A stretch of DNA of 64,000 nucleotides from a virus (Duplodnaviria > Heunggongvirae > Uroviricota > Caudoviricetes), in the IMG/VR virus record IMGVR_UViG_2740892439_000009. One strand, written 5' to 3'. This document shows positions 21,289 to 22,080 of this stretch, piece after piece (position 1 is the stretch's first letter; each line of letters starts with the position of its first letter). The notes under the pieces were generated by a model. That model had not been told where the DNA came from. It was given only the letters and a program-made list of their open reading frames with translations, and searched no databases. The translations under genes were made by a program, and so were the position numbers.

Positions 21289-22080
21289 AAATATCATGAT
21301 AAGTATTTACTTACTTATCTTTTATGTATAAGATGACTTTGTTTTCGTTGAGACGCGACTGTTTGAACTTAAATACAAGTGCAAACGAAGAAGTCTATCT
21401 GGCAGTAGCCTAATAAGCCAAACACCAGCGAGGTCAGTTTCCAGCCTCGTTACCGAAATGGGACACACTGAGCGAGTGTGATTGCAGAACGCAGGATAGG
21501 GCATAGACAGCCAAACCACTATGCCCTATTCGATGAAGTAACAGAATGGGCGGTTGGTATATTTTCAACTCCATATGACTCCCGGATTCTTAGCCTCTGA
21601 CCGCCCATCCTGTTACGTCATTTTGTTCAATTATGTCGTTTATACTGGGTTAAAAAGCGGCGACGTAGCCCGGCTGGTATGGTTAGCCAGCACACAACGT
21701 TGAGGCCATTACATTTTTATCAATTCTAAGGTTCTATTCACAGAGATACCGGCGAGCGTTGATATGTAACATGTTGGGCAAACATTCAATCGGAGTAGTG
21801 GCCTCAACGTTGTGAAGACAGGATTGTTGTGTAGGTTTAACCACTGTTGCCATTGGTGCCTGTTTTCACAACAAATGATTCCATACATCACATTGTATAA
21901 ATTACAAAGTAGGTGCTGTCCTCAAAAAACATCATCTACTTAAAGATTTTGCCTTCTATTGAGCGAAGTCGAAAACGTCTGGCACTAACGAAAAGTGCAA
22001 GTAGCGGTGCGTTTCCTGGCAGAAACTAACACCGCCGCGATTGGCACTGTTGAGTAATAAATACTGGCAGTGCTGAATTG

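Follow-up and report, generated by a model that had tools for sequence, protein, structure and literature searches.

A tmRNA-like tag module with a 5' arm antisense to host tmRNA at the head of a phage-plasmid operon of non-coding RNA and tRNAs

The window, a 64,000-nt stretch of a Caudoviricetes virus record, is by sequence identity an SSU5-like phage-plasmid of E. coli (95-99% identical to the E. coli phage-plasmids Cyrano and CMS-2020a and to ~110-kb plasmids). Positions 21290-22079 represent the first ~740 nt of a ~1.5-kb + strand non-coding RNA operon, in which a promoter-like site is followed by the non-coding RNA, hairpins, four tRNAs and a terminator. The features along the operon are as follows.

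21306-21334, + strand: sigma-70-like promoter (-35 TTTACT at 21306-21311, 17-nt spacer, -10 TAAGAT at 21329-21334)
21341-21364, + strand: 5' arm antisense to host tmRNA; its first block, GUUUUCGUUG (21341-21350), is complementary to ssrA nt 95-104
21355-21364, + strand: second block of the 5' arm, GCGACUGUUU, predicted to pair with ssrA nt 82-91
21365-21380, + strand: A-rich linker that precedes the resume codon and has A at -4 (sequence and alignments)
21381-21416, + strand: tmRNA-like tag frame, GCA AAC GAA GAA GTC TAT CTG GCA GTA GCC TAA TAA, encoding ANEEVYLAVA and two stops
21399-21428, + strand: helix-5-like hairpin CUGG/CCAG, its loop holding the stop codons; outer four pairs invariant
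21429-21463, + strand: H-type pseudoknot; S1 CGAGG/CCUCG (21429-33/21445-49), S2 UUCCA (21439-43) with UGGGA (21459-63)
21464-21480, + strand: hairpin b, CACACU/AGUGUG, two pairs with compensatory changes
21494-21531, + strand: hairpin I11 (helix 5), three compensatory pairs, variable loop
21533-21621, + strand: long hairpin I1 (helix 6), 25 pairs, 99.7% paired, three compensatory
21631-21691, + strand: two short conserved hairpins, 21631-40/21659-68 (helix 7) and 21673-78/21686-91 (helix 8)
21693-21814, + strand: long hairpin I3 (helix 9), 19 pairs, one of them A-U vs G-C 6:5
21809-21872, + strand: hairpin I6, its 5' arm overlapping the 3' arm of I3 (GUUGUG common to both)
21873-21889, + strand: near-invariant 17-nt block AAATGATTCCATACATC (12-relative alignment)
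22004-22074, + strand: two 3' hairpins just before tRNA-Asn, 22004-07/22032-35 and 22043-49/22068-74 (helices 10 and 11, compensatory changes)
22080-22636, + strand: tRNA-Asn, tRNA-Tyr, tRNA-Thr, a 224-nt structured spacer (22326-22549) and tRNA-Ser (ARAGORN/Rfam)
22639-22716, + strand: hairpin I4, a paralogue of I3, arms CACAGCGTTGAG... (inverted-repeat search)
22791-22815, no strand assigned: bidirectional intrinsic terminator AAAGGGGC-TTCG-GCCCCTTTT, end of the RNA operon (read from sequence)

The promoter, read from the sequence, places the predicted transcription start at ~21341. Its -35 block is invariant in 12 relatives, where the -10 element is TAAGAT or TATGAT, and it is absent from the promoter-scan output because this weak site scores only 8/12. 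Other families carry TTGACA-17-TATAGT (11/12) or TTGACA-17-TAGATT (10/12) at the same position, and the HK620 module is without a promoter of its own. The terminator was unlisted by the scan tool because its T run belongs to the stem. Between tRNA-Thr and tRNA-Ser, the structured spacer has closing stems homologous to the segment directly 3' of the tag module in HK620 and Carvaje.

A preliminary description had presented the ~780 bp upstream of the tRNAs as gene-free, and no conserved ORF was found in 21290-22079, the ORFs of 40-123 aa varying in frame and place among relatives. The only recurrent one, on the - strand at 21322-21519, contains stops in 6 of the 10 representatives examined and is interrupted in HK620, Carvaje and both Felix-type loci, among others.

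The three inverted repeats of that description were recovered as I11 (21496-21506/21519-21529, 11 nt, 100% complementary), I1 (21533-21554/21600-21621, 22 nt, 91%, including the quoted CAGAATGGGCGG/CCGCCCATCCTG) and I3 (21693-21712/21795-21814, 20 nt, 95%, with 82 nt separating the arms), together with an additional repeat, I6 (21809-21822/21859-21872). The term highly structured is apt, the 790-nt + strand folding at -266 kcal/mol (z = -8.2 vs shuffles) and the - strand at -241 kcal/mol (z = -4.5). The conservation analysis that had been called for found the paired segments kept in 12 SSU5-like relatives (down to ~69% identity): over 101 pairs, 99.5% of cells are still paired, as against 32-53% in slid controls, compensatory changes occur in 11 of the 101 pairs, and the covariation score was reached by 0/500 shuffles. 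The three quoted repeats keep their pairing through compensatory and G-U changes, with many G-C to G-U changes in I1, and helix 7 is + strand-specific because its three U-G pairs are invariant. I11 is the counterpart of the GGUAAGAGCA...UGCUCUUUCC bracket stems of other families. The I3 arms carry the palindrome CAACGTTG at start and end, and in relative L096 I3 is missing exactly between the two CAACGTTG copies. I6 aligns poorly in distant relatives; in the adjoining block AAATGATTCCATACATC one of 17 positions varies, in one sequence, among the 12 relatives, in an alignment ~69% identical overall. Long-range pairs proposed by RNAalifold (columns 69-72/782-785, 134-140/721-727 and 175-180/620-625) never show two-sided changes, and CGAAAAC at 21969-21975 was rejected as a long-range partner of the 5' GUUUUCG, being missing in Klebsiella-type relatives. 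The long hairpins would most probably bracket a polycistronic tRNA/ncRNA precursor for processing and stability; interchangeable bracket-stem 'cassettes' recur around the module in other phages.

Of the identities previously suggested for the region, that of one or more non-coding RNAs is borne out by a structured + strand RNA with covariation and G-U pairs, a promoter-like site upstream and co-oriented tRNAs downstream. The other two find no support: 21290-22079 has no T-arm or acceptor-like element that would indicate degenerate tRNAs, and no tRNA was detected there by the relaxed searches (ARAGORN, Rfam at E<=10 and a T-arm scan); nothing speaks for a recombination or packaging signal, the core being common to unrelated phages with different packaging systems. 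The conservation pattern (G-U wobble, compensatory pairs, a codon-periodic tag frame) is RNA-like. An integron attC-like or recombination-site reading of CACAAC...GTTGTG does not fit the attC-like form, RYYYAAC/GTTRRRY. The most informative part of the region, the tag module at 21341-21480, lies upstream of the listed repeats and had been overlooked.

The first ~140-150 nt of the RNA (21341-21480) constitute a tmRNA-derived module. As in bacterial tmRNA (SsrA), its tag frame opens at an alanine 'resume' codon (GCA) without a start codon, no conserved in-frame start being found upstream, and specifies a peptide of the form AN(D/E)..Y/F...A (cf. enterobacterial ANDENYALAA). The A-rich upstream context with A at -4 is also tmRNA-like, this A corresponding to A86 of host tmRNA (A86/U85 context), and so is the placement of the double stop in a hairpin loop (helix 5) with a pseudoknot directly 3' (pseudoknot 2). 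Across 161 loci the tag consensus is AN[DE][DENT]x[YF]LAVA, and the 27 unique ORFs from these loci specify 12 peptides in the tag frame, compared with 23 and 19 for the two alternative frames. At codons 8 and 10 all variation is synonymous; synonymous changes in the tag comprise GAA/GAG, GAT/GAC, TAT/TAC, TTT/TTC and GCA/GCC/GCT/GCG, replacements are otherwise conservative, and the stop position holds TAA, TAG or TGA among loci. As read from the alignment, this pattern shows purifying, peptide-level selection on the tag frame. The ORF in the +1 frame ((A/G/C)UG CAA ACG ... UAG) was rejected, with 23 different peptides and radical replacements.

The structural elements around the tag are similarly constrained. 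The inner stem of hairpin 21399-21428 is partly supported. In the pseudoknot, three S1 and two S2 pairs undergo compensatory changes across families, the four core pairs of S2 are never broken, and in relatives L222 and L247 S2 becomes CUCCA/UGGAG. At the position of pseudoknot 1 the module's 5' 40-55 nt align poorly between families and possible local pairings are without covariation, the segment being antisense to host ssrA. Comparison with tmRNA models (Rfam clan CL00001, RF00023/RF01849/RF01850, plus RF04321) gave weak matches centred on the resume region and tag frame, at 13-22 bits in the window and at best 29.8 bits (tmRNA_permuted, in a Felix-type locus) against gathering thresholds of 47-84; a search of all Rfam families at E<=10 returned sub-threshold tmRNA only, and no GOLLD, ROOL or other family.

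Unlike bacterial tmRNA, the module lacks an acceptor stem, G3-U70 (the alanine identity pair of the tmRNA acceptor stem), T-arm, CCA and helix 2, ends its tag in LAVA rather than ALAA, scores below the Rfam threshold, has an extra 5' antisense arm and is embedded in a phage tRNA operon. ARAGORN found no tmRNA in the window at 100-80% thresholds and gave spurious calls with unrelated tags at 70%; a scan of the 64-kb window found no extra T-arm with CCA, the 92 nt from the upstream ORF stop (21288) to the resume codon contain no T-arm, and the complete HK620 genome yielded no tRNA-like domain (TLD). In the Felix-type phage Mijalis, ARAGORN calls a permuted tmRNA carrying the module's tag. The TLD proposed there was rejected: its T-arm/acceptor lies ~570 nt upstream and overlaps real tRNAs, three real tRNAs and a promoter intervene before the module, and its stem GAAGGGU/ACCCUUC has A3-U70 instead of G3-U70 and thus no alanine identity. 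Genome notes on Moogle and Mushroom report an ARAGORN ssrA (PMC4319497, PMC4392139), the 2014 tmRNA census accepted no enterobacterial phage tmRNA (PMC4131195), and a literature search for a TLD-less phage tmRNA found no description.

Enterobacterial phages and phage-plasmids of at least four unrelated groups have retained the module, among them SSU5-like plasmids and Y. pestis pMT1. The module lies in or beside tRNA clusters in Felix O1-like myoviruses, ~46-kb Carvaje-like siphoviruses and SSU5-like phage-plasmids, and between pR'/qut and tQ, without any tRNA, in HK620; in every case it points the same way as the tRNA genes or late transcription unit beside it. Among complete E. coli genomes, SSU5-type copies occur in 258/5426 and HK620-type copies in 157/5426, with O26:H11 EHEC among the carriers of the HK620-type prophage element, and the module is unannotated in all matches listed. 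The SSU5-like plasmid NZ_CP048306 matches the window at 100% identity over 21336-21535. A loose pattern, TGCAAACGA-N24-34-AAACACCAG, found only chance matches to unrelated bacteria in genome contigs. Transcript, 5'-end and peptide evidence was looked for and none was found, pMT1 sR082 and sR083 (Y. pestis RNA-seq) mapping elsewhere.

The first ~25-35 nt of the RNA are an antisense copy of host ssrA nt ~70-106, spanning the resume codon and codons 2-6, and promoter-like sites put this arm at the RNA 5' end or within ~6 nt of it. Nearly all families have a perfect 8-10-nt complement to ssrA nt 96-106, within two or three collinear antisense blocks that together span nt ~68-106. Since RNAduplex on full-length sequences (200-nt vs 363-nt) gives meaningless duplexes, the arm was assessed by k-mer, short-arm duplex and cofold. 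The duplex of the window arm with ssrA (10+10 bp, -26.3 kcal/mol) was reached by 0/300 shuffles and persists, through arm nt 1-10 and 15-20, when the full-length RNAs are cofolded (net -9.8 kcal/mol). Arm-host duplexes have energies of -23 to -34 kcal/mol (z -3.8 to -7.6, 0/300 shuffles), compared with -12 to -19 kcal/mol for the arm on the RNA's own tag region, and full-length cofolds keep them at a net of about -10 to -14 kcal/mol. Of 3000 background windows, none did as well as the HK620 or L079 arm, 3 did as well as the arm of the window and 7 as well as that of Felix. Where arms differ, the change is mostly a transition, and host pairing is preserved via G-U (GCGACUG, GCGAUU, GCGGCU). With a conserved, exposed seed and complementarity to a defined target above chance, the RNA has the sequence hallmarks of a base-pairing sRNA. 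In ANEE/ANED-type members the arm can also pair in cis with the RNA's own tag region (MFE), so part of its conservation could be intramolecular. The arms of SSU5 (Salmonella) and pMT1 (Yersinia) are identical to E. coli ones, although the ssrA variant GAA ACC (ANDETYALAA) would mean one arm mismatch; there is thus no arm-host covariation.

The combination of an antisense 5' end with a tag frame suggests phage interference with, or re-programming of, ribosome-rescue tagging, the phage RNA acting on host trans-translation by base-pairing with host tmRNA. We favour, with about even confidence, a tmRNA derivative without a TLD which, by annealing to host tmRNA, would block the tag template there or take its place. 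The 5' end would hybridise to ssrA nt ~82-104 (~68-106 in other families), masking the host resume codon and codons 2-6. Because the tag frame is peptide-selected and the A(-4)/U(-5) frame-setting context is kept, replacement of the template is the most coherent form of this model: the docked phage RNA would supply its own template to ribosomes brought by host Ala-tmRNA-SmpB, and rescued proteins would end in ...LAVA, not ...ALAA, probably making them poorer ClpXP substrates. The specific version in which phage RNA and host tmRNA form a chimeric two-piece tmRNA, the phage template appending AN(D/E)xx(Y/F)LAVA instead of ANDENYALAA, we put forward tentatively, as possible but doubtful. In such a chimera the arm on ssrA nt ~70-106 would replace the 3' strand of pseudoknot 1 in some families and hide the host resume codon in all, and the phage resume codon would lie ~16-23 nt past the duplex, at about its native position, so that ribosomes might continue translation on the phage RNA. 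What becomes of rescued proteins could change through weaker ClpXP/SspB recognition or through delivery to another factor. To our knowledge there is no established ribosome route onto a tag frame without a TLD, and no precedent for supply in trans of an mRNA-like domain to a one-piece tmRNA.

The RNA could instead do no more than block tagging, by acting on host tmRNA as an antisense inhibitor or as a sponge. Its tag-like frame would then go untranslated and persist for its structure, as a decoy, or as a leftover from the inverted duplication of ssrA that gave rise to the arm. The strong arm-host complementarity and the missing TLD are in keeping with this, and interference with trans-translation has a phage precedent, since mycobacteriophage DS6A keeps a half-tmRNA (TLD only) reported to inhibit endogenous tmRNA (PMC4131195, PMC11915505). 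An untranslated frame would hardly explain the codon periodicity, the synonymous variation of Ala codons 8 and 10, the TAA/TAG/TGA interchange or the conservative replacements, nor why the tag region of the RNA itself has drifted only as far as is needed to escape pairing with the arm and is still tag-like, and we judge inhibition alone unlikely. Somewhat less probable again is that the region serves as leader to the tRNA operon, with hairpins that direct RNase III/E/P processing or shield the precursor, and that the tmRNA-like piece is the decaying remnant of a once-complete phage tmRNA. The module almost always adjoins tRNA genes, bracket stems with variable cargo recur around it, and mycobacteriophages and Bacillus phage G do encode complete tmRNAs (PMC4131195); yet HK620 retains the module without a tRNA, a fossil is not expected to complement the host better than itself, and decay does not fit a module that at least four phage groups unrelated to one another retain, whose tag is under purifying selection, whose pseudoknot covaries and whose 5' arm is invariant.

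An ordinary two-piece (permuted) tmRNA with its acceptor piece elsewhere in the element would account for the Mijalis call, the ssrA entries for Moogle and Mushroom and the fact that the best sub-threshold Rfam score belongs to tmRNA_permuted, but the Mijalis stem has the wrong pair, overlaps real tRNAs and has a promoter in between, neither the 64-kb window nor the whole HK620 genome contains an acceptor candidate, and the census accepted no enterobacterial phage tmRNA, making this explanation very improbable. We give least credence to small protein genes or to a function at the level of the DNA, as a recombination site, an origin or a packaging signal. Long inverted repeats, the precise loss of I3 between CAACGTTG copies in L096 and the hypothetical proteins annotated under the match in some records would suit it; the G-U pairs and the better fold are strand-specific, the core is common to phages with unrelated replication and packaging modules, and ORF conservation is absent.

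The tmRNA-SmpB system is a universal bacterial ribosome-rescue and protein-tagging system, and in every case known to us its tRNA-like part works jointly with the mRNA-like one; here the tag-template half is kept under selection without the tRNA half in at least four unrelated enterobacterial phage groups. Were the RNA to block or re-programme tagging, as we favour, it would represent a new mobile-element route to manipulate host proteostasis, a natural tool for ssrA-tag re-coding and a reason to re-examine phage ARAGORN 'tmRNA' calls, and the chimera, if true, would be the first trans-acting mRNA-like-domain replacement and the first viral re-coding of the cell's degradation tag. On the most cautious reading it is a new, widespread, structured phage non-coding RNA family with clear boundaries and testable predictions.

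Several known systems resemble the module in part. In two-piece tmRNA (alpha- and beta-proteobacteria, cyanobacteria) the 5' acceptor strand comes from the coding piece, whose base-paired partner is a dedicated acceptor piece made by the same gene. The module is likewise a separate template RNA predicted to find its partner by base-pairing, but its only detectable partner is the complete tmRNA of the host, contacted via the mRNA-like domain (MLD). It shares with phage tmRNAs (mycobacteriophage Bxz1 group, Bacillus phage G, DS6A) a derivation of the phage gene from ssrA; whereas those of the Bxz1 group and phage G are complete and DS6A has the TLD half, the module is the MLD and pseudoknot half, has an antisense arm and occurs in enterobacterial phages. 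The EHEC prophage anti-sRNAs AgvB and AsxR pair with core-genome sRNAs and, as predicted for the module, are mobile-element RNAs that target a conserved host RNA by an exposed antisense end; the module differs in that its target is tmRNA and in that it also mimics the target's functional part. None of the stable T4 species 1 and 2 RNAs and the large, ornate phage RNAs GOLLD and ROOL is known to us to carry a tag frame, and GOLLD and ROOL have no sequence or Rfam match to the module. Like all of these, with the T4 RNAs likened by description, the module is a structured non-coding RNA co-located and co-oriented with phage tRNA genes.

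By sequence, the window belongs to the SSU5-like phage-plasmids of E. coli: over positions 21250-22850 it shares 95-97% identity with Escherichia phages CMS-2020a and Cyrano, and about 75-83% with Salmonella phage SSU5 and with phage-plasmids of Klebsiella. The 790-nt region itself (21290-22079) matches 773 plasmid records (Klebsiella, Escherichia, Enterobacter, Yersinia, Salmonella and Citrobacter) and 317 phage records. It is flanked by the following features.

19155-20477, DNA ligase gene, upstream of the region
ending at 21288, + strand, four small ORFs, upstream of the region
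21306-21334, promoter-like site (TTTACT-17-TAAGAT)
22080-22325, tRNA-Asn, tRNA-Tyr and tRNA-Thr, downstream of the region
22326-22549, structured spacer of 224 nt between tRNA-Thr and tRNA-Ser
22550-22636, tRNA-Ser, downstream of the spacer and followed by another long hairpin
22791-22815, bidirectional terminator
22814-24025, - strand, 403-aa neighbour of the AbiGi-like gene, with a faint HSDR_N_2 match
24052-24918, - strand, AbiGi-like gene (Pfam PF10899, E = 2e-24)

The three inverted repeats of the preliminary description were recovered at their positions (I11, 21494-21531; I1, 21533-21621; I3, 21693-21814), and its view that the region lacks a convincing ORF holds, in that none is conserved across relatives. 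The region folds far better than shuffled sequence (z of -8.2 on the + strand versus -4.5 on the - strand). When eleven local helices were scored in an alignment of twelve SSU5-like relatives, down to ~69% identity, the paired segments proved to be kept, with 99.5% of 1160 cells paired and 11 compensatory pairs; slid controls pair at only 32-53%, and the covariation score was reached by 0 of 500 shuffles. Many G-C to G-U changes together with invariant U-G pairs indicate that the structure is specific to the + strand. The first observation is thus confirmed, and is of more interest than was first supposed.

In a BLAST comparison with phages, ~110-150 nt near the 5' end (~21329-21483) proved ~75% identical to unannotated DNA of unrelated phages, lying within the tRNA cluster of Felix O1-like myoviruses, between pR'/qut and the late terminator tQ in HK620 and HK633, and upstream of a tRNA-Ser in Klebsiella siphovirus Carvaje. 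The common core (21381-21416) reads GCA AAC GAA GAA GTC TAT CTG GCA GTA GCC TAA TAA, encoding ANEEVYLAVA, as compared with GCA AAC GAC GAA AAC TAC GCT TTA GCA GCT TAA TAA for the E. coli tmRNA tag ANDENYALAA; in a Felix-type locus ARAGORN reads the corresponding tag as ANDNVFLAVA. Among the 161 loci recovered by pattern scans of IMG/VR there are 27 distinct tag sequences, which yield 12 peptides of the form AN[DE][DENT]x[YF]LAVA in the tag frame versus 23 and 19 in the other two. Across the 161 loci Ala codon 8 uses three synonymous codons and Ala codon 10 four, synonymous variation extends to Asp, Glu, Tyr, Phe and Gln codons, TAA, TAG or TGA serves as stop at an unchanged position, and no in-frame start codon is conserved. 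This codon-level pattern indicates selection on a translated tag and not merely on RNA sequence. The resume frame of E. coli tmRNA is set by A86 and U85, and at the corresponding positions of the tag loci base -4 to the resume codon is always A and base -5 usually U.

A hairpin with CUGG/CCAG as its closing stem (21399-21428) holds the stop codons in its loop, and an H-type pseudoknot follows directly 3', an order identical to that of the mRNA-like domain of tmRNA (tag, helix 5, pseudoknot). Pseudoknot stem 1 occurs as CGAGG/CCUCG, UGAGG/CCUCA, CAAGG/CCUUG and CAGGG/CCCUG, and stem 2 as CCAG/CUGG, CCGA/UCGG and CCAA/UUGG, or as UUCCA/UGGGA or CUCCA/UGGAG in SSU5-like elements. Among 29 non-SSU5 sequences, compensatory pairs number three in stem 1, two in stem 2 and two in the next hairpin; the four core pairs of stem 2 are never broken, and the covariation score was reached by 0 of 500 shuffles. 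Farther downstream, a 17-nt block (AAATGATTCCATACATC, 21873-21889) is near-invariant in the ~69% identical SSU5-like alignment, varying at one position in a single sequence. RNAalifold pairs its UUCCAU with AUGGGA (21458-21463), which also belongs to stem 2, so that the block could be an alternative partner of that strand.

Upstream of the tag lies an arm containing an invariant GUUUUCG. In every family except HK620 a promoter-like site is found just upstream of it (TTGACA-17-TATAGT in Felix-type phages, TTGACA-17-TAGATT in ~46-kb siphoviruses; that of the window is weak), putting GUUUUCG no farther than ~6 nt from the predicted RNA 5' end; the HK620 module lacks its own promoter and is part of the pR' late transcript. 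The GUUUUCG segment is a perfect complement of nt 96-106 of E. coli ssrA, the host tmRNA gene, covering host tag codons 3-6. In the window arm GUUUUCGUUG is predicted to pair with ssrA nt 95-104 and GCGACUGUUU with nt 82-91, including AGUC|GC at the resume codon, while the arms of HK620, Carvaje and a further module-bearing locus, L079, add UUGCGG(U)UUUU, complementary to nt 68-81 including the 3' strand of pseudoknot 1. Judged by complementarity, the arm amounts to ssrA nt ~68-106 copied in inverted orientation, apart from small indels. Predicted arm-host duplexes reach -23 to -34 kcal/mol (z of -3.8 to -7.6; 0 of 300 shuffles as good), versus only -12 to -19 kcal/mol against the RNA's own tag region, although in some members the arm is predicted to be able to pair in cis with that tag. 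Of 3000 background windows, none was as good as host ssrA for the HK620 and L079 arms, seven were for the Felix arm and three for the window arm, among them the arm's complement on the opposite DNA strand. Cofolding of the full-length RNAs retains the duplex, for a net -10 to -14 kcal/mol, and differences between arms are mostly transitions that preserve host pairing via G-U. No arm-host covariation was seen; an ssrA of the ANDETYALAA type exists, yet the arms of SSU5 and pMT1 show no change.

The tRNA-like domain (TLD) of tmRNA is absent. No tRNA-like element was found in 21290-22079, no T-arm plus CCA beyond the four tRNAs in the 64 kb, and no tRNA, tmRNA or T-arm in the complete 38-kb genome of the module carrier HK620. 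With ARAGORN thresholds of 100-80% the window yields no tmRNA; at 70% the calls are all spurious and have other 'tags'. A permuted tmRNA that ARAGORN calls in a Felix-type phage was rejected: the T-arm/acceptor (stem GAAGGGU/ACCCUUC) is borrowed from about 570 nt upstream, across three real tRNAs, carries A3-U70 and not the alanine identity pair, and is separated from the tag module by a strong promoter-like site. This 'TLD', in Citrobacter phage Mijalis (L002 1978-2040), is a circularly permuted tRNA-like arrangement of T-arm, 3' acceptor strand ACCCUUC-G-CCA, 4 nt, and 5' strand GAAGGGU with D-arm-like sequence; its third pair is A-U, and it may be a rearranged tRNA pseudogene. In Carvaje (L003 2630-2705) one bracket-stem cassette contains a 10-bp stem on which a perfect T-arm (AUGGG-UUCGAGU-CCCAU) stacks, in the manner of a minihelix or the top half of a tRNA. 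Its third pair is C-G and not G-U, and it lies downstream of the tag module there and upstream in another phage (L022). The 'ssrA' of the Moogle and Mushroom genome notes simply repeats an ARAGORN call (PMC4319497, PMC4392139), and the phages entered in tmRNA censuses are limited to mycobacteriophages, Bacillus phage G and DS6A, which has the TLD alone (PMC4131195, PMC11915505). No description of a TLD-less phage tmRNA was found in the literature searched.

The element is thus a widespread, conserved, structured phage RNA that joins an arm antisense to ssrA with an ssrA-like tag template and a pseudoknot, lacks a TLD, and heads tRNA operons or sits within them. It is clearly tmRNA-derived, but with the TLD missing and Rfam giving only weak, below-threshold tmRNA matches centred on the resume region of the tag core, it is not tmRNA proper. 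We infer that it pairs with host tmRNA, and it probably acts on trans-translation. Three features call for a joint explanation, namely the absence of a TLD, selection on the tag as a peptide, and an arm that fits host ssrA more closely than the RNA's own tag region; docking on host tmRNA is the most economical model. The arm would cover the host resume codon and tether the phage template beside the host TLD and pseudoknot 1, the latter reportedly replaceable by a simple helix. The phage resume codon would lie 16-23 nt past the duplex, similar to the ~11-20 nt of the native one from the same point, so that rescued ribosomes would append ...LAVA. ClpX requires the C-terminal L-A-A of the ssrA tag, and an A-V-A end is therefore probably a weaker degron, while the N/D/Y positions that bind SspB are partly retained. 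We know of no precedent for trans use of a tag template, and there is a substantial chance that the mechanism is new.

The same covering of the resume codon would suit a pure inhibitor of host tmRNA, a reading we regard as unlikely given a tag that appears to be selected as peptide. Somewhat less likely still is a fossil within a processing scaffold, against which the codon-level pattern of the tag again speaks. An ordinary two-piece tmRNA with a hidden acceptor piece is very improbable, no acceptor candidate having been found in the 64-kb window or in the complete HK620 genome.

I11, I1, I3, I6 (21809-21872) and the hairpins toward the 3' end form conserved stem-loops in the RNA. They exemplify an arrangement met repeatedly, in which long bracket stems (GGUAAGAGCA...UGCUCUUUCC, CACAACG...CGUUGUG, GUGGUG...CACCAC) enclose variable 'cargo'; in other phage groups such stems flank the tag module and tRNAs, now upstream, now downstream. 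The stem-loops are putative elements for the processing or stability of the polycistronic precursor, or putative small stable RNAs within it. I3, I2 (22323-22409) and I4 (22639-22716) are paralogues. In the tRNA-Thr/tRNA-Ser spacer one stem is formed by 22323-22346/22386-22409, and CCGTTGTGGTGG (22398-22409) pairs with CCACCACAACGG (22536-22547); the middle strand, GUUGUG(GUGG), has a potential partner on either side, one upstream and one downstream. The closing stems are homologous to the segment directly after the tag module in HK620 and Carvaje, which suggests an ancestral unit that later took up the hairpins and three tRNAs by insertion. One relative (L096 255-931, compared with window 21693-21814) lacks I3, the missing stretch being bounded precisely by the two CAACGTTG palindromes with which the arms of I3 begin and end; hairpins can evidently be lost cleanly, and perhaps gained cleanly too.

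Of 5426 complete E. coli genomes, 258 carry the SSU5-type module, for the most part on plasmids of ~110 kb, and 157 carry the HK620-type module, in chromosomal prophages including those of O26:H11 EHEC; among the E. coli matches listed almost none lies over an annotated feature and none over an RNA gene. On the plague plasmid pMT-1 of Y. pestis KIM10+ (76600-77106; L290 1201-1707) the tag module (ANEDTYLAVA), I1 and I3 are retained and the region ends right after I3 at caf1R and the F1 capsule locus, a cut that accounts for the missing downstream tRNAs. Hits to pMT1 reported from Y. pestis sRNA-seq map elsewhere than the module.

Rfam scores tRNA-Ser(UGA) (22549-22633) as tRNA-Sec at 46.6 bits, just below the threshold of 47; a selenocysteine tRNA was rejected, as the anticodon UGA is that of Ser and the long variable arm explains the match. 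Within the tRNA cluster (22080-22659), the Asn, Thr and Ser genes and a portion of the spacer share ~92% identity with the tRNA region of P7 and D6, which are P1-like phage-plasmids; a tRNA module is therefore common to two otherwise unrelated phage-plasmid families. Directly after the RNA operon comes a low-GC island (28-38% GC, 22814-24918, - strand), whose AbiGi-like gene and 403-aa neighbour may form an AbiG-type abortive-infection pair aboard the phage-plasmid.
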